A stretch of 64,000 nt of DNA from Candidatus Entotheonellaceae bacterium (lineage in GTDB: Bacteria > Tectomicrobia > Entotheonellia > Entotheonellales > Entotheonellaceae), in NCBI GenBank assembly GCA_965238075.1, contig OZ250173.1:1984001-2048000 (forward strand). The letters are read 5' to 3'. Within the stretch, counting starts at the first letter, position 1, and every line of letters starts with the position of its first letter. The notes beneath the pieces were generated by a model that saw only the letters and a program-made list of their open reading frames with translations, ran no database searches and was not told the origin of the DNA. The position numbers and the translations under genes were made by a program. Below, one piece after another: positions 8,275 to 60,395 of this stretch.

Positions 8275-8544
8275 CTAATGCTTGTCCAGTTCCAGCTCGT
8301 AGAGCTTCTGATACATCACGTCCCATTCCCGGCTGCCTTCCATGATCCTGCGCGTATAGGATGCCAGAGTCTGCCGGACGGCGAAGTCGACTTCCTCTTC
8401 GAGCCGGAGCGCTTCCTGTATGGCACCCACGATCTGCAGCCGCACGGTGTTGGAGGGCATGCGGAGCGTCACCTCCGGCATTTCCTCCAACCTCCGCACG
8501 ACAAGCTGCGAAAGATGATTGACTTTTTCCCTTGAGAGGCTCAT
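8275..8544 (-). CDS. DUF507-family protein
   Basis: MSLSREKVNHLS...EGSREWDVMYQKLYE resembles DUF507; tandem with a paralog. Confidence 0.7.
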   Translation of the reverse strand: MSLSREKVNHLSQLVVRRLEEMPEVTLRMPSNTVRLQIVGAIQEALRLEEEVDFAVRQTLASYTRRIMEGSREWDVMYQKLYELELDKH

Positions 8545-8575: not shown

Positions 8576-8857
8576 CTACAAAATCAGCCCGCGGTCCCGC
8601 ACAAGTTGGCGTTTGACCATGGAAAACATGCGCGAGTAGTCGATGTTGCCGCGGTCCATCTCGTTGATGTGGTCCTCCAGGATGTCTCTTACCTCGTCGT
8701 TGAGGCGATCCTCAACCATAAGGTCGTTGACAATCAGCCGGCTCACTGCCTCGGTTACGGCACGCGGGTCCACCTCGAGCTCCAGCATGTCTTTCCGGGT
8801 CAACACGTCCGTGATGATCTTGGCGACGTGGTCGATCATTTTCCTGCCCAGTCGCAT
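8576..8857 (-). CDS. DUF507-family protein
   Basis: MRLGRKMIDH...EDRLNDEVRDIL...DYSRMFSMVKRQLVRDRGLIL; GGAGG RBS before ATG 8857. Confidence 0.75.
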   Translation of the reverse strand: MRLGRKMIDHVAKIITDVLTRKDMLELEVDPRAVTEAVSRLIVNDLMVEDRLNDEVRDILEDHINEMDRGNIDYSRMFSMVKRQLVRDRGLIL

Positions 8858-8949
8858 ACCCGGCCTCCTTCGCATATCCAGCAGATTCCAGGGAATGATA
8901 TGTTGCGGACAACGCAAGTTCAAGCGCGCACGCGGCGCCCCGCGGCTGC

Positions 8950-9448: not shown

Positions 9449-9477
9449 CTGACAATGCCGGGGCGGTGTGCTACCAT
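9449..9477 (+). promoter_or_regulatory. Candidate sigma70 promoter (extended -10) for the putative selenoprotein
   Basis: CTGACA-N17-TACCAT with TG just upstream of the -10. Confidence 0.5.
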
Positions 9478-9540
9478 CGGCGCCTCTCATTCACACCATG
9501 CAAGGGCCGCACGGCCCGCAACGCAGCAAGGAGAACCTTC

Positions 9541-10206
9541 ATGAGCCAAGGCTACCACTTCACCATCTGGAGTTGTTACGTTTGACCATACGCCTGGCGA
9601 GCCGCGGAGTGGCTCGATCGCGTGAAAGACAAATTGGGCGAAAACCTGAAAATTACCTGGAAGTCGTTTCTGCTCGAGCAAGTCAACAGTCGCCGCGGAA
9701 TGGAATGGAAAGCCTGGGACGACCCCCGTTTCACCAGCCGCGACATCCCGCCGCATGAGGCCGTCAAGAGCATCCTGGCCGAGCAGGGCGAGGACGCTTT
9801 CAACCGTTTCCATATCGCCGTGTTCCGTGCGCACCACCAGCAGAAGCGGGACATTGCCAATCCCCTCGAACTGATGCAGTTGGCCCGCGAGGTCGATGTC
9901 GACCCCACCGTGTTGGCCGAGGACCTGCGCACCCGCAAGTACCGTGCTGCCGTCGGCGCCGACCATCAGGAATCGGACGAGCACGACATTTTCGGCGTGC
10001 CGACTATCCTCTTCGACGGTCACCAGCCCACCTTCATCAAACTCGATTCCGGGGCTTGGGAAGGACCGGACGACGTGGAGCTCTTCCACGCGCTGTACAA
10101 CATCGCCGCCCCGCGTCCGTACGTCATGGAAATCAAGAAACCCGCCTCGGCGACGGTCGCTGCCGCTTCGGAGGCGCGCCGCCGCGAGGACATGGGACGC
10201 GGCTAG
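9541..10206 (+). CDS. DsbA/FrnE-like thioredoxin-fold protein, probable selenoprotein (in-frame UGA 9583-9585)
   Basis: AAGGAG RBS then ATG 9541 gives MSQGYHFTIWSCYV*PYAWRAAEWLDRVK, in frame with the ORF-track ORF 9622-10206, which carries the IFGVPT cis-Pro motif. The UGA is at the redox Cys position. Confidence 0.8.
9588..9624 (+). promoter_or_regulatory. Candidate bacterial SECIS hairpin
   Basis: CGAGCCGC-GGA-GTGGCTCG upper stem (9598-9616) with a G-led loop starting 20 nt after the UGA; possible lower stem TACGC/GCGTG. Confidence 0.7.
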
Positions 10207-10625
10207 AGCCGGGTTAACACTGTCGGACTGTATCGTGTTCCAGTCCCGGGATGGAAATCGCCGACTCTCAGTACCAACGCATAGCGCCCTGTTTGCTGGT
10301 GCAACGTGGCAACGTCAACCTGTCGAATCTGCCAAGTGCTCGGCGCCAGCCTGTACGTCGTCGAGCATGGCTGCATGTGGCGGGGGTTGCCGGAGTGATC
10401 TGGCAATTGGCATGCCCATTTACACCTAGATGAGCCGCTGGTCGAAGAACGGGGCGCTGGATCGGGTCTTCGAGCACCTCCCAGCGAGAGAGAATCGCGC
10501 GCATCAAATTCGAGGCGGTTTCGATGGACAGCACCATCGTCAAGGTCCGTCCCGATAATACGGGCGCGCTAAAAAGCCCGCAGCCCATCGGAAAATCCCG
10601 GGGCGGTTGGACCACTAGAGTGAAT
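10204..10625 (+). mobile_element. IS5-family transposase remnant (frameshifted, internal stops, truncated)
   Basis: Pieces MEIADSQYQRIAPCL..., WRGLPE, MSRWSKNGALDRVFEHL and SMDSTIVKV...GALK..PQPIGKSRGGWTT; possible left end TAGAGCCGGGTTAACAC at about 10204. Confidence 0.85.
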
Positions 10626-10724
10626 TCACTTTGATACCAAGAGCCTTGGCAGAAGCGGTCATGGCAAAATGCCCTCGCAGGAACTCCAACTCCGAAAAAC
10701 TCGTTATCTCAAACGGGACGCACA

Positions 10725-10828
10725 TTAGAACAGTTCAAGATTGCGCAGCGGCATACCCAGAAGTCCTGAAAAGCGAGTGCATTTGTCTGGTTTGAATCGA
10801 GATTCCTTTCAATCTTGAACTGCTCTAA
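10725..10828. mobile_element. MITE-like element, 104 bp, with 19-bp terminal inverted repeats
   Basis: TTAGAACAGTTCAAGATTG (10725-10743) and CAATCTTGAACTGCTCTAA (10810-10828) match at 18/19 in inverted orientation; non-coding interior. Confidence 0.65.
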
Positions 10829-10848
10829 GTTCAGAGGTAAGGACCCTC

Positions 10849-11439
10849 ATGTCGCACGATTTGCGCATTAAAAATAGAACTGTAGTCAATGGGGGGGATG
10901 AGCGCGATCAGACCGACGAGTTGGTCCGCAAGCTCTGGAGCCGCCTGTCGATGGAGGCGCCGGCGATCCATGTCGCATCCCCTGAGCAAGTTCCCGGCAC
11001 TTACCACAAGCTCCTGGTCCACGACACTGGTATGACGGCCACTCTCGAGGCCCACTGGAGCGAACCGCTGGCTGTAGACCTGGTGGCGGATGACCTGATT
11101 GTCGAAGATCGCTCGCTCTACCGCTTCATCGCGCTGTACACCAAAGGCACCCGCCAAGTGGTGGAACTGGCCACCATCCGTATCGTGCTGGATGTTTTCC
11201 CGGCGCCGTTACGTCCGGAGTTTATCGAGGGCGTTCGCCCCTTCGGCGGCATCCTGACTGGCGCGGGCATCACTTTCCGCGCTAGGCCATCAGGTTTCTT
11301 CTGGATCAAAGCCGACGAATTCATCGCCCGGAAAGCCGGTATAGACGTCGGCATAACGCTCTACGGTCGGATGAACGAACTGCACGGCGAAGACGATGTC
11401 CTGCTGTGCGAGACCGTCGAGATGCTGCCGCGCGTCTGA
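10849..11439 (+). CDS. Chorismate pyruvate-lyase (UbiC)-like protein
   Basis: KLLVHDTGMTATLEAHW, PFGGIL, LYGR and ETVEMLP resemble the UbiC/UTRA fold; TAAGGA RBS. Confidence 0.6.
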   Translation: MSHDLRIKNRTVVNGGDERDQTDELVRKLWSRLSMEAPAIHVASPEQVPGTYHKLLVHDTGMTATLEAHWSEPLAVDLVADDLIVEDRSLYRFIALYTKGTRQVVELATIRIVLDVFPAPLRPEFIEGVRPFGGILTGAGITFRARPSGFFWIKADEFIARKAGIDVGITLYGRMNELHGEDDVLLCETVEMLPRV

Positions 11440-11590
11440 ACGCCCGCGAAAGTGCCCGTCAGCGCATCTCGAATGCTTATTCCGCTTTACGACTGCGGCG
11501 GTCAACCAGGGTGGTCTGGCCGAGGCGACGGCACCGTTCACTTCTAACCAGTGAGTGATACCGAGAGCAAGACGAGCAGAAAGGTCGATT

Positions 11591-11929
11591 GTGGCCGAAT
11601 CGCTGGAATCGTATTACCCCGTGGAAATTCAGCGCAACGACGGCGGCGCCCTGCGCATCCTGTGGAACGACGGGCGCGTCTGCTTCTATGGATACAGCAA
11701 TCTGCGCAAGGTCTGCCCCTGCGCCACCTGCGGCGAACTGCGCACCCAACAGCAGGAAGCCGCCAAAAACCCCTTCCAGACCGTGACCACCGTCACCACC
11801 CGCGACGTGCAGCCGGTGCACCTGAACACCGTGGGCCATTACGCCCTCGGCATCGAATGGGACGACGGCCACCGCACCGGCATCTACCCCTGGGCCATGC
11901 TGCGGGCACTCTGCGAGGACGACGATTAA
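11591..11929 (+). CDS. DUF971 / gamma-butyrobetaine hydroxylase N-terminal-like protein
   Basis: LRILWNDG, LRKVCPCATC, VGHYALGIEWDDGHRTGIYPWAMLR. Confidence 0.88.
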   Translation: MAESLESYYPVEIQRNDGGALRILWNDGRVCFYGYSNLRKVCPCATCGELRTQQQEAAKNPFQTVTTVTTRDVQPVHLNTVGHYALGIEWDDGHRTGIYPWAMLRALCEDDD

Positions 11930-12504: not shown

Positions 12505-12608
12505 AAATCCAGTGAGACACTACCGCCTGATGGGTGTTATTACTGAACGAAAGCATGGTATCGGAACCCGATCCTGGATACCATTCATGGCGGAAGGGGG
12601 ATGATCTT

Positions 12609-15600
12609 GTGAATCGGAAAGCCATCTTTACCAGCTATTTCAAGAACCTTGCCGCCGTCGCGCGACAAGGCGACGCGCGTGAGGAGAGCTTCTACCCGGC
12701 CCTGGCGACGATGCTCAAAGGAGTCGCTGACGACAGCGGTCGGCAGCACGTGCACGTCACCACCCTGCCCAAGCCGACCGAGGGCGGCAATCCGGATTTC
12801 CGGCTGTGGAACGGCGCGGACCGTATCATCGGCTACATCGAGGCCAAGAGGCCGACCGAAGAGCGGCTGGACGACATCGAGAATTCCGAGCAGCTGAAAC
12901 GCTACCGATCGACCTTCCCGAATTTGCTGCTCACCAACTTTCTGGAATTTCGCCTGTACCGCAACGGGGTGCGGGAGCAGACGGTTCTGGCCGCCCGGCC
13001 GCTGGTGCTCAACCAACTGCGCACGGTGCCTCCGGTTGAACGGCCGGAAGAATTCTCAGTCCTCCTTGCGCGCTTCCTCGATTTTGCCCTGCCCAAGACG
13101 TTCACCGCCGAGTCCCTCGCCGTCGAGCTGGCCAAACGCACGCGCCTGCTCCGGGATGTCGTCCGAGACCAGTACAACGACGAAGCGGATGACCCCGGCA
13201 TGCTGCGCGGCTTCTTTGACGCCTTCCGGGAATACCTCATCGGCTCGCTGACGCCGGAGGCGTTCGCCGACCTGTTCGCGCAGACCATCACCTACGGTCT
13301 TTTCGCGGCTCGCATCCGCGCCGGGGACGGCTTCAATCGCCGCGCCGCTTTCGACAACATTCCCCACACTATCGGCGTCCTGCGTGACATGTTTCGCTTC
13401 ATTTCGCTGGGCGATCTGCCGGAATCGCTCGCCTGGTGCGTGGACGATCTCGCCGAGGTCCTGGCCGTGGCCGACGGCCCCGGCATCCTCGGTCGCTACT
13501 ACCGGGAGGGCAAGGGCAGCGACCCGATCGTGCATTTCTACGAGACATTTCTGGCGCAATACGACCCCGACGAGCGCGAGCGGCGCGGCGTCTACTACAC
13601 CCCCGAACCAGTCGTCGGCTACATTGTTCGCTCCCTGCACGGCATGCTCAAGACCACCTTCGGTCTGCGCGACGGCCTCGCCTCGGAGGGCGTGACGTTG
13701 CTCGATCCCGCAGCGGGCACCATGACCTTCGTGGCCCAGGCCGCCCAAGAGGCGGTTGCCGAGTTTGAAGCCAAGTACGGCAGCGGCGGCAAGGAAGACT
13801 TCATTCGCCAGCACATTCTCAAGAACTTCTACGCCTTGGAACTGATGATGGCCCCCTACGCGGTCGGCCACCTCAAGATGAGCTTCTTCCTGGAAGAACT
13901 CGGCCATCGCCTGGGCGACGATGAACGCATGCCGTTTTACCTCACCAACACCTTGGACTGGAAGGAGCTGGAGGAAAGCCGCTTGCCGGGCATTTCGGCC
14001 CTGGCCACCGAATCCCGCCTGGCGGGTGCGGTCAAGAAGGAGAAACCGATCCTGCTCATCCTCGGCAACCCGCCCTATTCAGGGCACTCCAGCAACAAGG
14101 GAGACTGGATACGCGGCCTGATTGACGATTACAAGCAGGTGGACGGCAAGCCCCTGGGCGAGAAAAACCCGAAGTGGCTGCAGGATGACTACGTCAAGTT
14201 CCTGCGCTACGCCCAGTGGAAAATCGAGCAGGCCGGACGCGGCGTTGTCGGCATGATCACCAACCACAGCTATCTCGATAACCCTACCTTCCGCGGCATG
14301 CGTCAAAGCCTGCTGCGTACCTTCGACGACCTCTACGTTCTCGACCTGCACGGCAGCGCGTTGAAGAAGGAAACCGGCCCAGACGGGAGCCCGGACCAGA
14401 ACGTCTTCGATATTCGTCAGGGGGTGGCCATTGCCTTCTTTGTAAAGCGGGGCGATTCAACGATGGACGGGCAGGACGGCCGGGACGCTAACGCCGTGGT
14501 TCATTACGCCGAGCGATTCGGAACCCGTGAGAGCAAATACGACTGGCTGCGCGCGCACGAGCGAGACAGCACCGATTGGCAGGCGCTGAATCCGGCGTCG
14601 CCGTACTACCTGTTCGTGCCGCGCGACGAGGCGCTCGAAGCCGCATACAGCCGGTTCATGCCGGTGCCCGAGGTATTCCCCGTGCACAGCGTCGGGATTG
14701 TGACGGCGCGCGACAGCCTGACGATTCGCTGGTCGGCGGATGAGGTGTGGAACACCGTGATCGTTTTTTCGCGGATGGAGCCGGAGTTGGCCCGGCAAGG
14801 GTATGAGCTTGGCAATGATGCGCGGGATTGGAAGGTGACGTTGGCGCAGCAGGATTTACGCGATTCGGGTCCTGTCCGCGAACGGGTGATGCCGATCCTG
14901 TACCGGCCCTTTGACGTGCGCCACACTTATTACACCGAGCGGTCGCGGGGGTTCATCTGCATGCCCCGTCCCGAGGTCGTGCGCCACATGCTGGCCGGGG
15001 AGAATCGGGCGCTGCATGTCTGTCGGCAAACGGTCAGCGAGACGTGGCAGCACTGCTTGGTTACGCGTGGCATTACGGATGATTGTTACGTGTCCAACAA
15101 GACTCGAGAGCGCGGATATACCCTACCTTTGTATCTCTATCCTACTGCCGACCGCGGTGACCTCTTTGCAAGACTTGAATCGTCCGCACGGCAGCCCAAT
15201 CTGAGTCCCAAACTGGTCGCGGTCCTGACGGCAGCGCATGGCCGAGCGCCCGCGCCCGAGGATATCTTCCACTACATCTACGCCATCCTGTATGCCCCAA
15301 CCTATCGCGCCACGTACGCCGAGTTCCTGCGCACCGACTTCCCGCGCATTCCGTTCACGACGGATCAAGACGTGTTCGCCCAACTCGCCGCCTTGGGTGC
15401 GCGACTGACCGCTCTTCACCTCCTTGACTCCCCCGAACTCGACACGCCGACCTGCCGCTTCGAGGGCGACGGCGATGCCGTGGTGGCCCGAACGAAGACG
15501 GGGGGCTTTCGCTATGATCCGGACGCCCAGCGCCTGCACATCAACAAAACCCAGTATTTCGGCCCCGTTCCGCCAGAGGCTCATGCTTACCGGATTGGTG

Positions 15601-15773
15601 GCTACCAGGTCTGTGACAAATGGCTGAAGGATCGTAAGGGCCGCCGCCTTGACCTCGATGACATCCGTACCTACTGTCGGATGGTGACGGCCATCGGGAT
15701 GACGCTCAGCATCCAGGAAGAGATTGATAGGTTGTATCCTGAGGCTGAGAAGGATATCGTGGCGATCTCATGA
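12609..15773 (+). CDS. Single-chain restriction-modification enzyme (Type IIG / Type ISP-like without helicase): PD-(D/E)xK nuclease, N6-adenine MTase, C-terminal specificity domain
   Basis: NPDF...IGYIEAK nuclease motif, GVYYTP, LLDPAAGTMTF (motif I), GNPPY (motif IV), DFPRIP and IGGYQVCDKWLKDRK C-terminal motifs. Start uncertain (12534-12609). Confidence 0.88.
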   Translation: MNRKAIFTSYFKNLAAVARQGDAREESFYPALATMLKGVADDSGRQHVHVTTLPKPTEGGNPDFRLWNGADRIIGYIEAKRPTEERLDDIENSEQLKRYRSTFPNLLLTNFLEFRLYRNGVREQTVLAARPLVLNQLRTVPPVERPEEFSVLLARFLDFALPKTFTAESLAVELAKRTRLLRDVVRDQYNDEADDPGMLRGFFDAFREYLIGSLTPEAFADLFAQTITYGLFAARIRAGDGFNRRAAFDNIPHTIGVLRDMFRFISLGDLPESLAWCVDDLAEVLAVADGPGILGRYYREGKGSDPIVHFYETFLAQYDPDERERRGVYYTPEPVVGYIVRSLHGMLKTTFGLRDGLASEGVTLLDPAAGTMTFVAQAAQEAVAEFEAKYGSGGKEDFIRQHILKNFYALELMMAPYAVGHLKMSFFLEELGHRLGDDERMPFYLTNTLDWKELEESRLPGISALATESRLAGAVKKEKPILLILGNPPYSGHSSNKGDWIRGLIDDYKQVDGKPLGEKNPKWLQDDYVKFLRYAQWKIEQAGRGVVGMITNHSYLDNPTFRGMRQSLLRTFDDLYVLDLHGSALKKETGPDGSPDQNVFDIRQGVAIAFFVKRGDSTMDGQDGRDANAVVHYAERFGTRESKYDWLRAHERDSTDWQALNPASPYYLFVPRDEALEAAYSRFMPVPEVFPVHSVGIVTARDSLTIRWSADEVWNTVIVFSRMEPELARQGYELGNDARDWKVTLAQQDLRDSGPVRERVMPILYRPFDVRHTYYTERSRGFICMPRPEVVRHMLAGENRALHVCRQTVSETWQHCLVTRGITDDCYVSNKTRERGYTLPLYLYPTADRGDLFARLESSARQPNLSPKLVAVLTAAHGRAPAPEDIFHYIYAILYAPTYRATYAEFLRTDFPRIPFTTDQDVFAQLAALGARLTALHLLDSPELDTPTCRFEGDGDAVVARTKTGGFRYDPDAQRLHINKTQYFGPVPPEAHAYRIGGYQVCDKWLKDRKGRRLDLDDIRTYCRMVTAIGMTLSIQEEIDRLYPEAEKDIVAIS

Positions 15774-23257: not shown

Positions 23258-23536
23258 ATGCCTAACACCAAACCCCACCGCGTCTGGACCGTCGCCGAAG
23301 CCAAGGCTCGCTTATCGGAAATTCTCCGGCTTGCGGAAACAGAGGGTCCCCAGTGCATCGGTGCGCGGAAACCCTTCATTGTAGTGCCTGCCCAAGTGTG
23401 GGCTGAGCGTGAGACGCCTCGCACACCGCTTGGCCGATGGCTGGTTGAAAACACGCCGCGTGGAACGAGCCTTGAAATCCCCAGTCGCCACGACCGAGGA
23501 CGCGAGATCCCGTTTATCAATGAAGCGGACGCATGA
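23258..23536 (+). CDS. Phd/prevent-host-death family antitoxin
   Basis: WTVAEAKARLSEIL..A..EGPQ; ATGA overlap with a PIN gene. Confidence 0.85.
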   Translation: MPNTKPHRVWTVAEAKARLSEILRLAETEGPQCIGARKPFIVVPAQVWAERETPRTPLGRWLVENTPRGTSLEIPSRHDRGREIPFINEADA

Positions 23537-23952
23537 GTGGTTATCTCCTGGATACCAACGTGGTTTCGGAGTTATCGAAACAGACCCCGCACCCAGGCAT
23601 TGTGGCGTTTCTGGATGCCGAGGATGACCTTTGGCTATCGGTCATCGTTCTCGAAGAGCTTGAATTGGGTGTGCGACTGCTCCCGGAGAGCCGCCGTCGC
23701 AGCCGATTGAGGGACTGGCTATCCCAACTGACGGTGGACTTTGCCGCACGTGTCTTGCCTATCGGGAGACGGGAAGCTGAGCAGGCCGCTGTGTTCCAGG
23801 CACGCGCGCGCCGGGATGGCAGGGTGCTGCACCTTGCCGACGCACTTATTGCGGGGACGGCCATTACTCACGATTTGGCTGTGGTAACCCGTAACGCCAG
23901 AGATTTTGACGGTTTGGACATTGGCGTGATAAACCCCTGGCAAACGCCATGA
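23533..23952 (+). CDS. vapC: VapC-family PIN toxin
   Basis: YLLDTNVVSEL, DALIAGTA, VTRNARDF. Confidence 0.92.
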   Translation: MSGYLLDTNVVSELSKQTPHPGIVAFLDAEDDLWLSVIVLEELELGVRLLPESRRRSRLRDWLSQLTVDFAARVLPIGRREAEQAAVFQARARRDGRVLHLADALIAGTAITHDLAVVTRNARDFDGLDIGVINPWQTP

Positions 23953-34450: not shown

Positions 34451-34936
34451 ATGCGCTACGCCTATCCGTGCAACATCGTCCGCGACAAGGAAGAGGAACG
34501 GCTAGGTAGAAGAGAAGCCTATACGGCAACCTTTCCCGACGTGTATGGGGCCAACACAGGCGGATGGTCCTGGAAAGAGGCCGTGGAGATGGCCAAGGAT
34601 TGTCTGGGGGTCGCCCTGGGCATGCACGTTAAGGCCCGCGAAGACATACCCGCTCCCAGTCCCCTCAAAGAGGGCCAAGTGTTGATCTCCGTAGCGCCCA
34701 TTGTTGCAGCGAAGCTGGCTCTCTATACAGCGATGCGGGAACAGGGCGTCACCAACGTCGCCCTTGCCGAGCGGCTGGGCCTGCAAGAAAACGCAGTCCG
34801 TCGGCTTCTCGACCCTGGGCATCAATCTCCCATGACGGCGGTCGAAAAGGCCCTCGAAGTCGTTGGGCGCTCCCTGATGGTGGAAAATAGGGTCGCCGTC
34901 CAGTATTCCGAAGTCCCTGCCACTCTGGCCCCGTGA
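34451..34936 (+). CDS. hicB: HicB-family antitoxin with C-terminal HTH
   Basis: TFPDVYGANTGG..WKEAVEMAKDCL, IPAPS, KLALYTAMREQGV..LAERLG. Confidence 0.9.
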   Translation: MRYAYPCNIVRDKEEERLGRREAYTATFPDVYGANTGGWSWKEAVEMAKDCLGVALGMHVKAREDIPAPSPLKEGQVLISVAPIVAAKLALYTAMREQGVTNVALAERLGLQENAVRRLLDPGHQSPMTAVEKALEVVGRSLMVENRVAVQYSEVPATLAP

Positions 34937-42808: not shown

Positions 42809-43931
42809 TGGGGAATGCAGAAGCATCGAACTTAGCGTTGTCACAGTATTGCGTCGATGTCGTGGAATTTGGAACCCCCGCCCCTCGTCATTGGATTCGA
42901 TGCGAAATCGGCAAGGACCTCCTATTTGATACGGATAGGCTCCAAACCTATTGCCTCACGAAATGGGATGAACGGCTGTACGATCTGCTGGTCGTTGCCG
43001 CGTCCGTGCAGTTTTGCGACCGAACGAAGGCACGGCCTTCGACCGGGTGGGGCCGAAATTTTGTAGTACGGATTAAGGACCTATTGGGGATTCCTCGCTC
43101 CCCTTCGCTTCCGTCCCTTTTCAGGTTCGGTTTGAGAGTAAACGTTCTGTTGAAACCAGCGCACGGTCCCGAGGCTTCAAGTTTGCAGTGCTAAGTGGTA
43201 TCGCAGCTTATCTGTCAGGAGCCAAAATGGTCATTATGCCCGAGAGTGGGCAGGGCGCCTTGGGACCGAGTCTCGTGCCGGTTGGCCAAGCGTACGAGGA
43301 CTATCGGAATCACCCCTTATTCACTGATCGTATGACGGTCTTTCTCTCAGCCCTTCTCGGTCATGAGGTTTGCTTTACGTATCCTCGCCTTTGGCACACC
43401 AAAGCGGAGACGCTCGCTGAATTCGTGACCAAGTGCCCAGACGGCCCAAATTGGGCTCAAACTCGCTCTTGCTGGCAGAATCAAAGGCACGTTTCCGTAT
43501 CCGGCACGATGCGACAGTGCGGCATCTGCGCGGCGTGTATGCTCCGGCGTATGAGCGCCCACGCAGCAGGTCTCACGGAGTGCAGACAATCCTATGTCTG
43601 GGAGGATTTGACTGTGGCTCGATACGAAGACGGTGCCGCCGCTTCGTATGGAAACAGGGAGCCGAGGGGCGCAATGCATGAATACGCAATTGCCGGAACG
43701 CTTCATCTCGATCACTTGGCGAGCGTTCTGCAATCCTCGGCAAACCAAGCCGGTCTTTCTCGACAAGTTTTTCTGTTGAGCCGTTCCCGGGGACTCACTG
43801 AAGAGAAAGTTCGAGCAAAACTGCACCGGCTAATCAGGCAACACGCAAAGGAGTGGAGAGGTTTTGTCGACTCCCTGGGGCCTAAGTCGTTTGTAACCCA
43901 GTGGATTGGGAGGGGAGAGGGGCATGTCTGA
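42808..43931 (+). pseudogene. QueC (7-cyano-7-deazaguanine synthase)-like protein of the QatC/Cap9 type, broken near 43075
   Basis: N-part YDLLVVAASVQFCDR...GWGRNF (frame of 42808). C-part ETSARSRGFKF...HPLF...TKAE...TRSCW...QCGICAACMLRRMS (frame of 43188, open from 43077). No PP-loop SGGxDS-like motif in either piece. Confidence 0.8.
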
Positions 43932-45096
43932 GGAGGGGTTGAATCCCATTGAGATTGGTAGGCGTCTGCGGATTGCGCGTGAAACGGCCGACATGACGCA
44001 GGCACATGCAGCCGCCAGTATCAACGTGGCGCGCACGACGCTGGTGGCCATGGAGAAAGGACAGCGCGCCGTTCGCACCGCTGAACTTCTGCCGTTGGCC
44101 AAGTTGTACGAGACGTCGGTCAACGCGTTGCTGCGCCGTGAGTCCGTTTATGTTGACCTTGTGCCTCGTTTTCGGAAACTGCCCGCGTGCAAGGAAGAGT
44201 CATCCGACGAAGCAGCCAGAGTGCTGGAAGCCCTTGTGCAGGCCGAAGTGGAACTGGAAAACCTGCTCGGTGTCATTCGTCCCCGGAACTACCCTCCACA
44301 ACGACCTCTCATGCCGGGCGATGTGCGGACTCAGGCCGAAAATGACGCGACCGAACTCCGCCACAAGCTCGGCCTGGGCTTGGCGCCGGTGCATGACGTG
44401 ACGAGTCTCTTGGAACTCGACCTTGGCATTCGCGTTTATATCCGGCGGCTTGACGCCCGTGTATCGGGATTGTTCGCCTATGATGAGCAGGTTGGCGCGT
44501 GCATATTGCTGAATGCCAATCACCCACGCGAACGCCGAGCACAAAGCGCGGCGCATGAACTGGGGCATTTTGTTTCAAGCCGCCAAGCACCCGAAGTGCT
44601 GTATGGCGACGGCCGAGAAAACTCGCGCGAGGAACGGTACGCCATTGCGTTCGCACGAGCCTTTCTGACGCCGGCACGGACGGTTATGCAGAGATTCCGG
44701 GACGTAACGCAAGGGGCGTCCCACCTGACGCGGCGTCACGTCATTCTACTTGCGCACGCCTTTGGCGTATCGCGTGAAGCCATGGTCCGGCGGTTCGAAG
44801 AACTCAGTCTGACCAAATCGGGGACCTGGGATTGGTTTGAGGGGAATGGCGGCATCACGAACGAACAGGCGAAGCAGGTGCTCGGGGATACGGCGGTTGT
44901 GGACCCGATTGATGCGAAGAGTCCAACGACGCTTCGTCTAAGCCTGTTGGCTGCTGAGGCATGGCGACAAGAACTGCTCGGCGAGGGGCAGCTTGCCCGC
45001 CTGTTGCGTCTGGATCGAGTTCAGTTGCGCGAAATTCTGGATGGGGTGGAGGTAGAAGGAGGCGACACGGATGGAGCGCCAAAGCTGCCTCACTGA
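43924..45096 (+). CDS. XRE-HTH fused to an ImmA/IrrE-family metallopeptidase
   Basis: IGRRLRIARE..MTQ..AA..ART..MEKGQR HTH; LLNANHPRERRAQSAAHELGH (HExxH); FGVSREAMVRR. Confidence 0.92.
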   Translation: MSEEGLNPIEIGRRLRIARETADMTQAHAAASINVARTTLVAMEKGQRAVRTAELLPLAKLYETSVNALLRRESVYVDLVPRFRKLPACKEESSDEAARVLEALVQAEVELENLLGVIRPRNYPPQRPLMPGDVRTQAENDATELRHKLGLGLAPVHDVTSLLELDLGIRVYIRRLDARVSGLFAYDEQVGACILLNANHPRERRAQSAAHELGHFVSSRQAPEVLYGDGRENSREERYAIAFARAFLTPARTVMQRFRDVTQGASHLTRRHVILLAHAFGVSREAMVRRFEELSLTKSGTWDWFEGNGGITNEQAKQVLGDTAVVDPIDAKSPTTLRLSLLAAEAWRQELLGEGQLARLLRLDRVQLREILDGVEVEGGDTDGAPKLPH

Positions 45097-54234: not shown

Positions 54235-55389
54235 ATGCCTATGACCGCCCCATTCCACCCCGCATCCGGGGACGTCCTGTACCGCAGCGCCTTGTTCGAG
54301 GCGCGCCGCTTCGGCCGTTACCTGGCGGTCGAGTTGCTGGCGCCGCATCGCGTGATAAGCACCTCCGCGGTTGGCGGCGGGCAACGGGACGACGTCCGCT
54401 TCCTAGTGAACCACCAGAGTTGCGAAGGGCAGGGCGATCAGGAGCGCTACGACCTGGTCGCGCGCATGGGACTGGACGCCTATCACCATACCGTGTGCGG
54501 GGAGATCGGGATCGACCCCGACCGCACCGCCCTGATGGGCACCGCCGCGAACATGGCCTACGCCGTCCACCGGTCGGCGGCGTTCGAGGACCTGCGAGTC
54601 GACGCTTTCACGACCGCCGGCGTCTCGGGCAACGCCGCACGGGCGGGCGATCCCGCTGCCTGGGTGGAAACCGACGACGGTTGGCGCAAGGTGTCGCCCT
54701 ACGCCGGGACGATCAACACGATCCTGCTGCTCGCCTGCTCGCTCACGCCGTCCGCCCACGCCCGCGCCAGCATCACGATGACCGAGGCGAAATCGGCCGC
54801 GCTGGCGGAACTGGCCGTTCCCAGCCGGTACTCGCCGGTCATTGCCACTGGAACCGGTACGGACCAGTTCTGCCTCGCCGCGCCGCTTGATCCGTCACGC
54901 AAGCCGAAGGATTCGACCAGTCCGCACGTCAAGCTGGGGGAGATCATCGGGGTCGCGGTCAAGGAGTCTGTCAAGGAAGCACTGTGCTGGCAGAACGGGC
55001 TGGAACCTTCCCGGACGCGCGATCTGTTTCACGCGCTGGGCCGCTTCGGCCTCACCCCGGCGCGGGCGGCCGAGCGTCTGGCGGCGTTGTTGCCCGAACG
55101 GCGCTACGGCCTGCTGGAGAAGAACTGGAACGCCGTCTTCCACGATCCGGGCAGCGCGGCGGCGGCCCATGCTTTTGCCGCGGTGCTCGATCGCGTGGCG
55201 TTCGGCACGCTCCCGCCGGGTCTGGCAAATGAGGTGCTGCGTCAGCAGGCGGCCTGCCTGGCCTGCTCGCTTGCGGCCAAGCCGGAATCCTGGCCGGCGT
55301 TCCGGGCTGAACTCGCCTTGGCATCCGACGATCCGGTCGAGTTGGTTCTGCGGGCGATCGCCCTCGGCTGGAACGCCAAGTGGTCCTGA
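54235..55389 (+). CDS. cbiZ: Adenosylcobinamide amidohydrolase CbiZ-like, with C-terminal extension
   Basis: MGTAANM, TTAGVSGNA..AGD, GTINTILL, TEAKSAAL, ATGTGTDQ; next to cbiB. Confidence 0.85.
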   Translation: MPMTAPFHPASGDVLYRSALFEARRFGRYLAVELLAPHRVISTSAVGGGQRDDVRFLVNHQSCEGQGDQERYDLVARMGLDAYHHTVCGEIGIDPDRTALMGTAANMAYAVHRSAAFEDLRVDAFTTAGVSGNAARAGDPAAWVETDDGWRKVSPYAGTINTILLLACSLTPSAHARASITMTEAKSAALAELAVPSRYSPVIATGTGTDQFCLAAPLDPSRKPKDSTSPHVKLGEIIGVAVKESVKEALCWQNGLEPSRTRDLFHALGRFGLTPARAAERLAALLPERRYGLLEKNWNAVFHDPGSAAAAHAFAAVLDRVAFGTLPPGLANEVLRQQAACLACSLAAKPESWPAFRAELALASDDPVELVLRAIALGWNAKWS

Positions 55390-57092: not shown

Positions 57093-57104
57093 ACCGCCAC
57101 ACTG

Positions 57105-57280
57105 AGAAAGCCGGGTCGTATCGCAGCGCCCGCTGCGATCAGGGAAGATGGTGCGAAGCCATCGCTGTCCCGCAACTGTAAGCGGAACGAAATCTGCAAC
57201 AGCCACTGAGGCAGCCGCCTCGGGAAGGCGCAGAGAGTAGGTTGCAAGCCGCAAGCCAGGAAACCTGCCCGGACTTTTTC
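57105..57280 (+). ncRNA. Cobalamin riboswitch
   Basis: AGGGAA..GGTGCGAAGCC, CCCGCAACTGTAA, GCCACTG, GGGAAGGC and B12 box AAGCCAGGAAACCTGCC, upstream of a btuB-like gene. Confidence 0.95.
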
Positions 57281-57478
57281 ACTGGAGAAACCTTTCGAGG
57301 GAGAGGGTGCCAGTGAAGGTAGTACGTCCCAACCGTCCAGGTTGTTCTTCTCACACCTTCCACGTGTCAGCGACCTGTTTTCGTTTGCCACGCGCTCGGC
57401 ATCTCCTTTCCTCCCGACGCGAGCCGGCGGTTTGCCCCGCCCGGTGCGCCACCTGACAAGTTATGGAGGAGGGGATCA

Positions 57479-59374
57479 ATGCACCGCAACATTTCAAGCT
57501 TCATCGCTGTTTGCCTATTCGTGGTCCTGGGACTGCGAGCGTCCGCCGCCTGGGCGCAGCAGGACGAGGACCCTTTCCGGCTCGATCCGCTGATTATTAC
57601 CGCTACCCGCTCGGCGGAGCGGCTGAGCCGGACGACGCGCTCGGTGACCGTGATCAGCGCCGAGGACATCGCCGCGCAGGGCGCCGAGACGGTCGCGGAC
57701 GTGCTGCGCAGCGTTCCCGGTCTGGAGGTGGTGCGCCAAGGTTCGTTAGGCGGCGTAACGAGTATCTTTGCGCGCGGCGCCGAGTCCGACCATACCGTGA
57801 CGCTCATCGATGGGGTCAAGGTGAACCTCGGCGGCGGGCAGTTTGATATGGCCGACTTGTCGGTGGACAACATCGAACGCATCGAGGTGGTGCGCGGGCC
57901 AACCAGCACGCTGTATGGCAGCGGCGCCATCGGCGGGGTCATTCACATCATCACCAGGCGCGGCCGCGGACCTCTGAGCGCCAGCGTGAGCGCCTCGGTG
58001 GGCAGTTTCAACACCCACACGCAACGGGCCGCCGTGAGCGTAGGAGAATCTTGGGGTGGCCTGTCGCTTTCGGCCAGCCGCCTCAACTCCGAAGGGCATC
58101 TGGCCTTCAACAACGACTATGATAACGCCAACCTGGCCCTGCGCGCTGACCTGTATCCGAACGAGCGCACCGACGTGAGCCTCATGCTGCGGCATACCGA
58201 CAGCGAGTTCCACTTTCCCACGGACAGCGAGGGGCGCGTGCGTTTTCACAATCAATTCAGCACCACACACGAAACCGCCCTGGGCTTGCGGGGCACGCGC
58301 GCTTTGCTTCCCTGGTGGACCACCAGTGTGCAAGTTGGCTTCCATAACCGAAATTACCGCCTGCAAGACGAGTCGGGCACCGCTTACCCCTATGCCGAGG
58401 AACGCCTGGCCCTGGATTGGCATTCCGTGCTGATGCTCGGCCTGGGAGAGCTGACCTTGGGCGCCGCGTACGACGACGAGGACGATACCGAAAACAACTA
58501 CGGTCGGCACAACGCCGCGGGCTACGCCCAGTTACGCATGAAGTCTATGGAACCCATGGTGTTGATTGGCGGTTTGCGTGTCGAGGGTCATAGCGAGTTT
58601 GGCACCGAGTTGACCTATCAGTTTTCCGCGGCTTACTTCCTGCCCGGCGGCACCAAGCTGCGGGCGGCGCTCGGCAGCGGTTTCAAGGCGCCCACTCTGT
58701 TCGAGAACCTCTCGACCCTTCCCGGCGCCCTTGGCAACCCGAACCTCGACCCGGAGCGTAGCACGACGTGGGAATTGGGCGTCGAACACAAACTGTGGGC
58801 TGACCGGCTGCGGTTCGAGGGCACTTTTTTTTCCAGCCGCTTCAAGGATTTGATCGACTGGGGCCCGGCGCCGCAGGGGCAACCCAACTACTTCAACATC
58901 CAGGAAGCCGAGGCGCACGGGTTGGAACTTTCCGCGACCGTCACACCGCTGCCGGCCTGGACTTTCGGCGCCGCCTATACATGGTTGCGCAGCGAGGTCA
59001 CCGATGCCGGCTTCAGCACGAGTGCCACCGTCGCCTTTGTCGAAGGGGAAAGCCTGTTGCGCCGGCCCGAGCATAAGGTGCACGCGTTTGGCAGCTACGC
59101 GCAGGGGCGCTTCAATGGCCGGCTGGACCTGCACCACATCGGGGTGCGTAACGACCGCCACTATCCCGGTTGGCCGCAGCCGACGAGAGCCGTCGACAAC
59201 CGGTCGTACACCAAGGTGAACGTGGTTCTGGGCTACAAGCTTATCGCAGGGGAGCGACGCACGCTGGAGCTGTTCGGGCGTGTGGAAAATCTCTTTGACG
59301 AGGATTACTACGAGGTGTACGGCTTTGCAACGCCCGGCTTTGCGGCGTTCGGCGGTATCAGGATGACGCTATAG
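57479..59374 (+). CDS. btuB: TonB-dependent cobalamin receptor (BtuB-like)
   Basis: Signal peptide, TonB box IIITATR, IERIEVVRGP.S.LYG..AIGGVI plug, VENLFDEDY; under the B12 riboswitch. Confidence 0.88.
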   Translation: MHRNISSFIAVCLFVVLGLRASAAWAQQDEDPFRLDPLIITATRSAERLSRTTRSVTVISAEDIAAQGAETVADVLRSVPGLEVVRQGSLGGVTSIFARGAESDHTVTLIDGVKVNLGGGQFDMADLSVDNIERIEVVRGPTSTLYGSGAIGGVIHIITRRGRGPLSASVSASVGSFNTHTQRAAVSVGESWGGLSLSASRLNSEGHLAFNNDYDNANLALRADLYPNERTDVSLMLRHTDSEFHFPTDSEGRVRFHNQFSTTHETALGLRGTRALLPWWTTSVQVGFHNRNYRLQDESGTAYPYAEERLALDWHSVLMLGLGELTLGAAYDDEDDTENNYGRHNAAGYAQLRMKSMEPMVLIGGLRVEGHSEFGTELTYQFSAAYFLPGGTKLRAALGSGFKAPTLFENLSTLPGALGNPNLDPERSTTWELGVEHKLWADRLRFEGTFFSSRFKDLIDWGPAPQGQPNYFNIQEAEAHGLELSATVTPLPAWTFGAAYTWLRSEVTDAGFSTSATVAFVEGESLLRRPEHKVHAFGSYAQGRFNGRLDLHHIGVRNDRHYPGWPQPTRAVDNRSYTKVNVVLGYKLIAGERRTLELFGRVENLFDEDYYEVYGFATPGFAAFGGIRMTL

Positions 59375-59399
59375 GGCGTAACCCCAAGGAGGGCGAAGG

Positions 59400-60395
59400 A
59401 TGGCCAGGCGAATCGCCGGACGCGCAGCAGCAGCGGTTGTGCCAGCGATGTTGATCGCGCTTGGTGTCGTTGCGTTCGTGGCGACCGGCGGCGCGACACG
59501 TTTGTCGCTGCTAGGCGCGCGGCCCTTTCATGCCACGCAGGTTGTCGGTCAGGACTTCCCCAAGCGGCTGATTGACCCGTCCGGAACGCCGCAGATGCTT
59601 GCCGGGCCGCCGCGCCGCATCCTGTCAGCGGTGCTGGCCAGCGATGAGATCCTCACCGCCCTGGTGCCGCCCGAGCGTCTGGCTGGGGTGACGTATCTGG
59701 TCGACGAGCCGGGCGTGTCCGACGTCGCTAAGCTGTTGCCGCCGGGTTTGCCGCGCATCCATGCCGAGGCTGAAACGATACTGGCCCTGCGGCCCGACCT
59801 GGTGGTGCTGGCCAGTTACACGCGGGCCACCGCGGTGCGCCTGCTGGTGGCGGCGGGCGTTCCGGTGATGCGCTTTCAATGGTACCGCTCGTTTGTCGAC
59901 ATTATGAACTCAATCCGCATGCTGGCTGCCGCGGTGGGGGCGGACGACAACGGCGCGCGGCTCGTCGACGACATGCGGCAGCGCATCGCCGAGGTGGAAG
60001 GACGGACGCAGGGCTTGGCGCGGCCGCGCGTGCTGTATTACGGCGGCGGCGGCTACTCGGCCGGTGAGGACACCCTCATCGACGCCATGATCACCCTGTC
60101 CGGCGGGCACAACGTGGCGCGGGACGTGGGTCTTCAGGGCCAGGGGCGGTTGCCCCTGGAGATTGTCGTCAGCCTGCAGCCGGAGGTGATCCTGGTTTCG
60201 GAGCGGGAGCCGGGGGCGGGTGGCGACCGCGCCGCGGCGTTTCTGCACCACCCGGTCTGGGCTGACGTGCCGGCCGTCCAGGACGGGCGCGTCCATGGCA
60301 TCAAGGGCGCTTGGCTCAGTTCGGTATCCCACTATTCGGTAAAGGCGCTCGAAGCCATCGCGCGGGTGCTGCATCCCGAGGCGTTTTCTCTGTGA
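59400..60395 (+). CDS. Cobalamin/iron-chelate ABC substrate-binding protein (BtuF-like)
   Basis: PRRILS, ETILALRPDLV, PAVQDGRV. Confidence 0.85.
   Translation: MARRIAGRAAAAVVPAMLIALGVVAFVATGGATRLSLLGARPFHATQVVGQDFPKRLIDPSGTPQMLAGPPRRILSAVLASDEILTALVPPERLAGVTYLVDEPGVSDVAKLLPPGLPRIHAEAETILALRPDLVVLASYTRATAVRLLVAAGVPVMRFQWYRSFVDIMNSIRMLAAAVGADDNGARLVDDMRQRIAEVEGRTQGLARPRVLYYGGGGYSAGEDTLIDAMITLSGGHNVARDVGLQGQGRLPLEIVVSLQPEVILVSEREPGAGGDRAAAFLHHPVWADVPAVQDGRVHGIKGAWLSSVSHYSVKALEAIARVLHPEAFSL

Follow-up and report, generated by a model that had tools for sequence, protein, structure and literature searches.

A DsbA-like gene with a conserved in-frame UGA in Candidatus Entotheonellaceae very probably encodes a selenoprotein with a CxxUP motif

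A reading frame with a lone in-frame UGA near its 5' end lies on the plus strand of the window, by which we mean the whole 64,000-nucleotide stretch of DNA analysed here (Table 1). Direct reading gives an ATG start at 9541, the TGA as codon 15 (9583-9585) and a TAG stop at 10204-10206, with the TGA and the table-11 open reading frame at 9622-10206 in one frame. The original prediction had described this arrangement of an AAGGAG motif, an ATG and a codon-15 TGA continuing into a 194-residue frame, and each element was found where it had been placed. Translated with TGA as U, the protein begins MSQGYHFTIWSCYVUPYAWRAAEWL. An AGGAG-type motif also lies upstream of the start in orthologous loci, and one sigma-70-like site was found against a mean of 0.3 in shuffles of the region.

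TGA serves as a normal terminator in this DNA. It closes 23 of the 37 Pfam-supported reading frames in the window, so the genetic code has not been reassigned. A crude screen of the window for other in-frame TGA candidates, using GC3 on both sides, returned only antisense frames or adjacent same-frame genes; one such candidate, at 1-873, was translated and proved to be an off-frame artefact rich in Arg, Ser and Pro.

Table 1. Features of the locus, in coordinates of the window
Feature	Coordinates	Strand	Remarks
Candidate sigma-70-like promoter, CTGACA-17-TACCAT, TG before the -10 hexamer	9449..9477	+	consensus match only
Shine-Dalgarno motif AAGGAG	9528..9533	+	direct reading; 7-nt spacer to ATG 9541
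Predicted full selenoprotein coding sequence, 221 codons	9541..10206	+	cytoplasmic DsbA-like thioredoxin-fold protein; motif W-S-C12-Y-V-U15-P-Y-A-W
UGA codon 15, probably read as selenocysteine	9583..9585	+	TGA in 12/12 loci, Cys in six full-length homologues
Putative SECIS element	9589..9624	+	upper stem 9598-9605/9609-9616, loop GGA 9606-9608, weaker lower stem 9589-9593/9620-9624
Table-11 open reading frame, 194 aa, truncated form	9622..10206	+	without strand beta1 and active site
Insertion of ~1.37 kb, holding orf196 (10849-11439)	10201..11575	.	splits the selenoprotein gene from its usual DUF971 neighbour
DUF971 / GBBH-like_N gene, 112 aa, GTG start	11591..11929	+	PF06155, 6.6e-23; conserved downstream neighbour

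Codon 15 is TGA in the related genome loci and Cys in full-length metagenomic homologues. We compared 13 related genome loci, one of which ends at a contig edge and was excluded from the TGA count. The other 12, intact at the 5' end, all carry TGA at the same codon, at protein identities of 66-97%, and the peptide around it is conserved (TIW[SN]CYV before, PYAWRA[AT]EWL after). Both sides of the TGA are under purifying selection. Six of six full-length metagenomic homologues have Cys at this position, and such Cys forms arose at least twice within the clade. Position 15 is the sole invariant column among 56 aligned family members. Homologues bearing either Cys or TGA at this codon, which had been proposed as a check on selenocysteine (Sec), thus both exist.

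A hairpin of the bacterial SECIS type follows the UGA. Its arms, CGAGCCGC (9598-9605) and GTGGCTCG (9609-9616), enclose a GGA loop (9606-9608) whose first G lies 20 nt from the UGA, as the prediction of a G-led hairpin at this distance had it. The bSECIS criteria set out in section 5 of PMC13188914 are an apical loop of 3-9 nt, an upper stem of 4-16 bp, a G in the first two loop positions, a distance of 16-37 nt from the UGA and a minimum free energy (MFE) of -7.5 kcal/mol or lower. The hairpin agrees with that published model on every count, with a 3-nt loop, an 8-bp stem, G at loop positions 1 and 2 and 20-nt spacing. It forms the core of the MFE fold at this site and lies within the MFE fold of six of six orthologues, whose hairpins range from -16.8 to -22.9 kcal/mol.

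The best nucleotide-conserved 19-nt stretch of the gene is the hairpin, synonymous sites included. Degenerate codons for conserved residues are invariant in three of four cases within the hairpin versus 4 of 91 elsewhere (Fisher one-sided p = 0.001). The upper stem is fully (100%) paired in 11 distinct sequences; its only two substitutions, both in L007 and both one-sided, change A-U to G-U and G-U to A-U and keep the pairing. Double-sided compensatory changes are absent from all base pairs of the hairpin and the control by shuffling was uninformative (500/500), so the structure rests on conservation and not on covariation.

Taken alone, the hairpin counts as weak evidence. Of 1762 TGA triplets in the window, 65 (3.7%) precede some 8-bp hairpin whose loop opens with G and lies at 16-37 nt, and fold z-scores are modest, at about -1.2 to -2.4 (-1.39 for 68 nt, -2.42 for 45 nt). 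Rfam gave no family at the site, whether the whole window was scanned at gathering thresholds or 9480-9760 at E <= 10. The joint conservation of TGA and hairpin across genomes puts the hairpin beyond chance. Elsewhere in the window, the only Rfam match is a cobalamin riboswitch.

The full-length protein is predicted to adopt a DsbA fold. The Pfam DSBA domain (PF01323) matches residues 9-185, across the TGA, at 56.9 bits against a gathering threshold of 25.6. The Rv2466c-like family PF22234 matches at 28.0 bits against a cut-off of 27, with its CPWC absent, and no NCBIfam model covers the protein (sole hit VdcD, 12.9 bits versus a cut-off of 30). An AF2 model (pLDDT 95.3, pTM 0.89) shows beta1 at 5-11, alpha1 at 16-35, beta2, a helical insert at 45-147 and then beta3-beta4-alpha; its Foldseek matches are DsbA-fold proteins. 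Because alpha1 spans 16-35, residue 15 is the helix N-cap in the model, which is the site of the attacking Cys in thioredoxin-fold oxidoreductases. In this fold Sec15 faces the conserved G152-V-P154 loop. The modelled chain opens directly with strand beta1, so no signal peptide, a mark of classical DsbA, is evident on inspection.

The active-site motif departs from that of the wider family. FrnE-type proteins and canonical periplasmic DsbA have CPxC, both of its cysteines lying in the first turn of alpha1; here the motif reads U-P-Y-A, and the sole other Cys in the protein is Cys12. Three residues before position 15, 47 of 49 distant relatives have Asp, and Cys is confined to seven near-clade sequences of the 56-row alignment; Cys occupies this site in the window and in all 12 intact loci. 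At +3 the residue is Ala here and Cys in 11 of the 49 distant relatives. The site had been flagged as unusual on both of these grounds, and the alignment agrees. Proteins with DxxCP[YFW], the Cys version of the D-type motif, are distant relatives at 22-37% identity. Some distant relatives are fused to dephospho-CoA kinase.

DsbA-like selenoproteins exist, as the original prediction stated, and two forms are already catalogued. Form 1, with a UxxC motif, is listed in Table 3 of the Sargasso Sea selenoproteome (PMC1088965). The present protein resembles it in its DSBA-like domain, in Sec at the N-terminal redox-motif position and in a bSECIS directly downstream; unlike form 1, which retains a resolving Cys at +3, it has Ala at +3 (UPYA) and its second Cys at -3. 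Form 2, with a DxxUP motif in PF01323, appears in Table 1 of a 2026 prokaryotic selenoprotein catalogue (PMC13188914), which cites Peng et al. 2016 and labels it a crotonase-family protein. The likeness here lies in the same Pfam domain, Sec-Pro at the first-Cys position of CPxC and no requirement for Cys at +3, but position -3 is Cys here (CxxUP) and Asp in form 2, so that, by these motif descriptions, the two are set apart. DsbA-like selenoproteins with Sec at this position are therefore known, and the new part is the CxxUP motif. Entotheonella is absent from five supplementary files of Peng et al. 2016, and deep-Sep (PMC12013277) does not mention DsbA. A search of the searchable literature found no selenoproteome description for Entotheonella/Tectimicrobiota.

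The closest solved structure is a Cys protein. DR_2335 of Deinococcus radiodurans (PDB 7DK9; C24S mutant 7DKA) ranks first both by structure (TM 0.76-0.79) and, among solved structures, by sequence (E = 2.6e-7), at about 21-23% identity. It is a single-Cys, cytoplasmic DsbA-like protein that shares CPYAWR. Its motif DFLCPYAWRG aligns to CYVUPYAWRA, with C24 opposite U15; it has Cys at the active site and Asp at -3, whereas here the active site has Sec and a second Cys lies at -3. The available text of PMC8945050 and PMC6300522 gives no functional data for DR_2335. The next-best structural neighbours, the mycothiol-dependent reductase Rv2466c (PF22234) and the D. radiodurans cytoplasmic disulfide reductase FrnE, are likewise cytoplasmic DsbA-fold proteins but have CPWC, which is absent here, as is the C-terminal CxxxxC tail described for FrnE (PMC8945050). 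Kappa-class glutathione transferases and 2-hydroxychromene-2-carboxylate isomerases also combine a DsbA-like fold with one catalytic residue placed at the helix N-cap, and three of them (3rpp, 1r4w, 3fz5) are structural neighbours at TM ~0.6 and ~14% identity. In these enzymes the catalytic residue is Ser. One public homologue (P0101) is annotated as a 2-hydroxychromene-2-carboxylate isomerase / Kappa-class glutathione transferase.

Public homologues have mostly been deposited without the active site. Among the matches listed, 114 of 120 homologue clusters start after the TGA, and 78 of the 120 start at the equivalent of residues 26-32. The expectation that standard gene callers would truncate this gene is borne out: if the UGA is read as Sec, they cut off the active site.

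Gene order ties the putative selenoprotein gene to a DUF971 gene, its same-strand downstream neighbour in 13 of 13 loci. The DUF971 protein carries an invariant CPCATC...H...C. The insertion between the two genes in the window is present in L003 and absent from L001, L002, L004 and L005, and its orf196 has no Pfam family. IS-element remnants suspected at 10250-10560 drew no Pfam match in support. MaoC hydratase genes are often found nearby. Complex prediction between natural Cys-form homologues and the DUF971 protein scored 0.00 against a mark of 0.32, a 'no answer' that speaks neither for nor against binding, and a literature search found nothing linking DUF971 with selenoproteins.

Genes of the Sec machinery, selA and selB, lie near the gene in a close relative. 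The 64-kb window itself holds no selA, selB or selD among its 54 profile-scanned reading frames or by tblastn, and no tRNA; neither ARAGORN nor Rfam detected a tRNA(Sec) in the window or the related loci, and none of the 13 loci showed selC or selD, nor did the 277,481 bases covered in all. In L005, whose orthologue is 93% identical, adjoining selA and selB lie ~5.4 kb upstream of the gene. Its selA matches TIGR00474 at 597.7 bits (cut-off 267.9), and its selB matches TIGR00475 at 358.4 bits (cut-off 242.25) and includes SelB winged-helix domains. An AhpD-like gene beside L005 selB was considered as a second selenoprotein; its motif is CPYC, and TGA is absent from it. A literature statement on Sec machinery also exists for Entotheonella. 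The proposed check for Sec genes came back empty in the window and found selA and selB in the relative.

The comparative evidence argues strongly that 9541-10206 is a single gene whose product is a cytoplasmic DsbA-like selenoprotein of 221 residues, a reading we regard as very probable. TGA in 12 of 12 loci, Cys in six homologues and a conserved bSECIS all support the proposal that this UGA encodes Sec. A lone in-frame stop near the 5' end could, if seen in one sequence, resemble a fresh nonsense mutation in a DsbA-like gene that once carried Cys, or a sequencing error; the same TGA recurs in all 12 independent assemblies, at protein identities as low as 66%, with purifying selection on both sides and a conserved hairpin 3' of it, so that a pseudogene or error here is scarcely credible. 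It is also highly improbable that the UGA simply terminates a 14-codon leader peptide, with a 194-residue protein starting at GTG 9622 and the hairpin serving a regulatory or coupling role. That account matches the table-11 annotation and the deposited form of the 78 of 120 clusters noted above, among the matches listed, and it fits the position of GTG 9622, the start used by gene callers, inside the lower stem of the hairpin. Yet its product would lack strand beta1 and the family's only invariant residue, the Pfam domain and PDB alignments cross the TGA, and GTG 9622 has no evident Shine-Dalgarno motif ahead of it. The 14 codons before the TGA are moreover the N-terminus of the family, conserved in frame and contiguous in the Cys forms.

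Recoding could in principle be genuine and SECIS-directed while the residue is not Sec, with Cys supplied by a tRNA(Sec)-like tRNA(Cys) or an amino acid by near-cognate read-through. Delivery of Cys by such a tRNA has been reported for some bacteria. The natural Cys forms, having arisen at least twice in the clade, indicate that Cys is functionally tolerated, and the failure to see selC and selD in the 13 loci points the same way. Against this stand the adjoining selA and selB of L005, since selA is needed only for Sec-tRNA(Sec) synthesis, and the retention of TGA in 12 of 12 genomes even though mutating one base, to TGT or TGC, would yield Cys with no need of the machinery. We consider a non-Sec residue very improbable.

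If the UGA is read as Sec, the hairpin would recruit SelB carrying Sec-tRNA(Sec), and at 9583-9585 selenocysteine would be inserted instead of termination; this decoding step is drawn from comparative evidence. Since Sec15 sits at the helix N-cap and is the family's sole universally conserved residue, we interpret the protein as a thiol/selenol oxidoreductase. It is likely that its selenolate attacks a disulfide or another oxidised sulfur substrate. Cys12 is a candidate resolving residue that might form an intramolecular selenenylsulfide with Sec15, a role that is plausible though somewhat doubtful. Synteny tentatively suggests the DUF971 protein as the most likely functional partner or client.

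A more speculative and rather unlikely scenario would see the redox centre as rebuilt. Here the catalytic Cys would have become Sec and a partner Cys would have been recruited at -3 in place of Asp, giving a CxxU selenenylsulfide one helical turn off the canonical CxxC. Such a centre may target the metal- or cluster-binding cysteines of the DUF971 protein, or may serve CoA-linked thiol chemistry, as hinted by the dephospho-CoA kinase fusions, the MaoC hydratase neighbours and the crotonase-family label of the DxxUP form.

The CxxUP protein would add a third motif type to the DsbA-like selenoproteins, beside UxxC and DxxUP. Functional or structural inference from the N-truncated public entries misses the active site. 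Sec at the single invariant residue of the widespread DR_2335-type subfamily would identify it as the redox nucleophile. Nature supplies both Sec and Cys forms, interconverted at least twice in the clade, and the switch from Asp to Cys at -3, as ready-made variants bearing on the contributions of Sec and of the -3 Cys. The gene, together with the selA and selB of a sister genome, lends independent support to Sec use in uncultivated Entotheonella/Tectimicrobiota, a lineage studied for its natural products.

The read-through gene encodes a DsbA-like thioredoxin-fold protein with an in-frame TGA in its active-site region. The promoter, AAGGAG ribosome-binding site, start codon, 14 sense codons and TGA leading in frame into the table-11 ORF all lie where the original prediction placed them. 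With the TGA read as U, the N-terminus is MSQGYHFTIWSCYVUPYAWRAAEWL, and C12 and U15 are the only sulfur/selenium residues of the protein. The Pfam DSBA-like thioredoxin domain PF01323 spans residues 9-185, across codon 15 (E = 3.1e-15, 56.9 bits against a cut-off of 25.6).

Coordinates of the selenoprotein gene, its surroundings and the sel genes of the related contig L005
Feature	Position	Strand	Details
Sigma-70-like site CTGACA-17-TACCAT	9449-9477	+	only site found; shuffles expect 0.3
Shine-Dalgarno AAGGAG	9528-9533	+	direct reading; 7-nt spacer to ATG 9541
Selenoprotein CDS	9541-10206	+	ATG 9541, TAG stop 10204-10206, 221 residues with TGA read as U
In-frame TGA	9583-9585	+	codon 15, after 14 sense codons
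Lower 5-bp stem	9589-9593 with 9620-9624	+	paired in 94.5% of cells
Hairpin CGAGCCGC / GGA / GTGGCTCG	9598-9616	+	inverted repeat; UGA to first loop G, 20 nt
Table-11 ORF	9622-10206	+	in frame with TGA 9583-9585
Insertion, 1.37 kb	10201-11575		splits selenoprotein/DUF971 pair; in window and L003, absent from L001, L002, L004 and L005
196-residue ORF in insertion	10849-11439		no Pfam family
selA	L005:1170-2654		TIGR00474 equivalog, 597.7 bits against cut-off 267.9
selB	L005:2651-4558		TIGR00475 equivalog, 358.4 bits against cut-off 242.25; SelB winged-helix domains 2 and 3

Neither a changed genetic code nor a damaged gene accounts for the TGA. The code is not reassigned, since 23 of the window's 37 ORFs with Pfam support use TGA as their ordinary stop. 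Scanning species-representative genomes yielded 13 orthologous loci (L001-L013), mostly from Candidatus Entotheonella or Tectimicrobiota MAGs; L013 begins at residue 16, at a contig end, leaving 12 that cover the site. All 12 have TGA at exactly codon 15, between conserved peptides (TIW[SN]CYV before, PYAWRA[AT]EWL after), and downstream of it the ORFs share 66% to 97% protein identity with that of the window. A pseudogene or sequencing error cannot explain a TGA kept with conserved flanks in 12/12 loci at identities down to 66%. Four of the 13 loci carry other submitter labels: L006, L011 and L012 (Gammaproteobacteria, Proteobacteria and Acidobacteriota) and one 'uncultured bacterium'. The selenoproteins of the three named loci nest inside the Entotheonella/Tectimicrobiota clade, which points to mis-binned or mis-labelled records or else to a gene pair passed on by horizontal transfer.

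Protein databases hold this family largely in truncated form. In a collection of 5.8 billion proteins the search found 127 relatives; the counts below cover the 120 that were listed. Only six of the 120 listed clusters reach across the Sec site, each with Cys at it (TVWSCYVCPYAWR); homologues with Cys or TGA at this codon, which the original prediction called for, exist in both forms. Another 78 of the 120 start at positions matching residues 26-32, in most cases with a GTG or ATG just past the hairpin, 36 start later, and none of those listed starts at residues 9-15. With 114 of the 120 listed clusters beginning after the TGA, gene callers cut off the N-terminus as anticipated. In a quick maximum-likelihood tree (100 sequences; the 194 of 265 alignment columns with 30% or more of the rows filled), the six Cys forms branch at two or more separate places among TGA-verified sequences. 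Parsimony counts three Sec/Cys changes, and supported branches force at least two. More than one Sec/Cys interconversion has therefore taken place in this clade.

A conserved hairpin follows the UGA. Bacterial SECIS elements are modelled with an apical loop of 3-9 nt carrying G in its first two positions, an upper stem of 4-16 bp, a distance of 16-37 nt from the UGA and an MFE of at most -7.5 kcal/mol (PMC13188914). The predicted SECIS-like hairpin lies in its expected place and agrees with these four published constraints, with a GGA loop, an 8-bp stem, 20-nt spacing and an MFE of -16.8 to -22.9 kcal/mol. Taken from this one sequence, in a GC-rich window, the evidence is not strong: z-scores of the fold are -1.39 (68 nt) and -2.42 (45 nt), and an 8-bp hairpin whose 3-9 nt loop begins with G lies 16-37 nt after 65 of the window's 1762 TGA triplets (3.7%).

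The comparative evidence is decisive. All six orthologues folded have the 8-bp hairpin in their MFE structure. Over 13 sequences (11 distinct), pairing reaches 100% of cells in the upper stem and 94.5% in the lower one; sliding the partners by 1-3 columns leaves just 17.5-46.9%. Upper-stem substitutions number only two, both in L007, and both retain pairing (A-U to G-U, G-U to A-U). We aligned codons of nine sequences, the window and L005-L012, leaving out the cut L013 and the near-copies of the window (L001-L004). Among 95 degenerate codons with an invariant amino acid, seven are invariant as codons: three of four in the hairpin (codons 20-25) versus four of 91 elsewhere (Fisher one-sided p = 0.001). 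The hairpin also carries the gene's best-conserved 19-nt windows (17/19 invariant columns), and the longest invariant run is CGGAGTGGCTCG. Since no base pair is changed on both sides in the 13 sequences and the shuffle control was uninformative (500/500), support for the hairpin comes from conservation, not covariation. No Rfam family matches it. RGAEWL replaces RAAEWL in 4 of 8 Cys-form N-termini, and that Ala is changed in 0 of 13 TGA forms, which would fit a relaxed RNA constraint after loss of the TGA.

The Sec position is the most constrained residue of the family. A profile search of 1.84 billion representatives found 831 relatives (177 at E <= 1e-10), and from the best 150 of these 831 we compared the 67 that reach the N-terminus. 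The resulting family alignment has 56 rows (49 distant full-length relatives and seven near ones; fragments and fusions were left out), and the Sec position is its only invariant column; the following Pro16 is present in 53/56. Three residues upstream, position 12 is Asp in 47 of the 49 distant relatives and Cys in all seven near ones, while position 18, the canonical resolving Cys, is Cys in just 11 of the 49 and Ala in the window protein, bearing out the unusual site first noticed.

An AlphaFold2 model built from the same alignment is confident (pLDDT 95.3, pTM 0.89) and runs from beta1 (5-11) through a loop (12-15) into alpha1 (16-35), with a helical insert (45-147) and beta3 (from 155) further on. 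Residue 15 is thus the N-cap residue of alpha1, where thioredoxin-fold enzymes carry their attacking Cys. G152-x-P154 is nearly invariant directly before beta3, and P154 is presumably the cis-proline loop. The nearest solved structures are, in order, DR2335 (7DK9, 7DKA; TM 0.76-0.79), Rv2466c, FrnE, kappa-class GST and a putative HCCA isomerase. In DR2335 of Deinococcus radiodurans the motif YFDFLCPYAWRG aligns with WSCYVUPYAWRA, and C24, mutated in 7DKA, aligns with U15. According to the available text of two reviews, DR_2335 is a DsbA-like protein that is predicted to be cytoplasmic, has one conserved Cys and lacks experimental data (PMC8945050, PMC6300522). By inspection, the window protein begins directly at beta1, without a hydrophobic stretch at its N-terminus, and should therefore be cytoplasmic.

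Part of the Sec machinery is encoded near the orthologue in a sister genome. The window yielded no tRNA, no SelA, SelB or SelD domain among 54 ORFs scanned, and no tblastn match to the E. coli proteins. Extending tblastn with E. coli SelA, SelB and SelD to the window plus 13 loci (277,481 bases together) located selA and selB in L005, an uncultured Entotheonella contig syntenic with the window whose orthologue is 93% identical. The pair ends ~5.4 kb upstream of the DsbA-like gene, where the window and L001-L003 have cpn60 and cpn10. The sel genes sought by the original prediction were thus recovered in part, as selA and selB in a relative; selC and selD were seen in neither the window nor the 13 loci. 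SelA and SelB homologues are mentioned in an Entotheonella gene cluster in the available text of a 2025 report (PMC12858407). Beside selB, L005:4584-5195 encodes an AhpD-like 'peroxidase-related' protein (TIGR01926) with CPYC rather than Sec.

Codon 15 is very probably decoded as Sec, as originally proposed: a continuous conserved frame runs through a conserved UGA followed by a conserved hairpin fitting the bacterial model, Cys and Sec alternate at the family's only invariant residue, and a sister genome has selA and selB. The main gap is that the genome's own sel genes are unseen, the view being of a 64-kb window. Insertion at the UGA would be SelB-dependent. The selenolate at the helix N-cap is likely to be the nucleophile attacking an oxidised sulfur substrate; more tentatively, judging from sequence, Cys12 might resolve through a selenenylsulfide with U15, with re-reduction by thioredoxin or a low-molecular-weight thiol as a candidate step.

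The gene has one constant neighbour. A DUF971/GBBH-like_N gene (PF06155, E = 6.6e-23) comes next on the same strand in 13/13 loci, its product having invariant CPCATC, H94 and C108. This conserved neighbourhood suggests, as a hypothesis, that the DUF971 protein is a partner or client of the selenoprotein. Further out, L006-L013 have nothing else in common with the window beyond a convergent MaoC hydratase gene in some of them; over all 13 loci, that gene is found nearby in nine. The insertion between the pair starts inside the selenoprotein gene, in its final codons; the gene has 221 codons in the window and 220 in L001. An extra C-terminal CPCPQC, duplicating the internal CPCATC pattern, occurs on the DUF971 neighbour only in L006:10753-11097 and L007:10708-11055. 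In three of three long matches tested (P0144, P0146 and P0195, distant relatives of ~415 residues), dephospho-CoA kinase (CoaE) is fused with a DxxCP DsbA-like domain, perhaps hinting at CoA-thiol chemistry for the subfamily.

Other loci in the window were recorded alongside. A cobalamin riboswitch (RF00174, 57096-57286, + strand, 110 bits) precedes genes at 57479-62235 for a TonB-dependent receptor, a periplasmic binding protein and an ABC ATPase; 57096-62235 looks like an ordinary B12-uptake operon, with a CbiZ gene nearby (54235-55389). Beside the MaoC gene, a Type ISP restriction-modification enzyme gene (12534-15773, + strand; Type_ISP_C and N6_Mtase) has the look of a variable defence insertion: L002, L004 and L005 have it, and L001 and L003 gave no match. 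Adjacent minus-strand ORFs at 8275-8544 and 8576-8923 match DUF507 profile positions 95-179 and 1-93 of 182; both are kept in L001-L005, and they represent a split gene or, alternatively, two genes in a conserved arrangement. PIN-domain (23533-23952), HicB-like antitoxin (34451-34936) and IrrE-like HTH plus Peptidase_M78 (43906-45096) genes are scattered toxin-antitoxin or regulator types unrelated to the selenoprotein.

The protein extends a known group. In the available text of earlier reports, DsbA-like selenoproteins were first described from the Sargasso Sea (nine sequences, UxxC; PMC1088965) and are known from several bacteria (PMC1794560) and from 41 organisms (Peng et al. 2016, whose supplements do not include Entotheonella). 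PF01323 occurs just twice in the available text of a 2026 catalogue, as form 1 (UxxC) and as form 2 (DxxUP) (PMC13188914). The window protein fails the form 1 motif outright. It shares with form 2 the Sec position and the next Pro, and its distant Cys relatives carry DxxCP, but Cys replaces Asp to give CxxUP. No NCBIfam model recognises it, and in the accessible literature our search found no link of selenoproteins to Tectomicrobia or to DUF971. The selenoprotein gene is real and systematically mis-annotated, and CxxUP is a new motif variant among known DsbA-like selenoproteins: to a selenoprotein specialist, a useful addition rather than a surprise.
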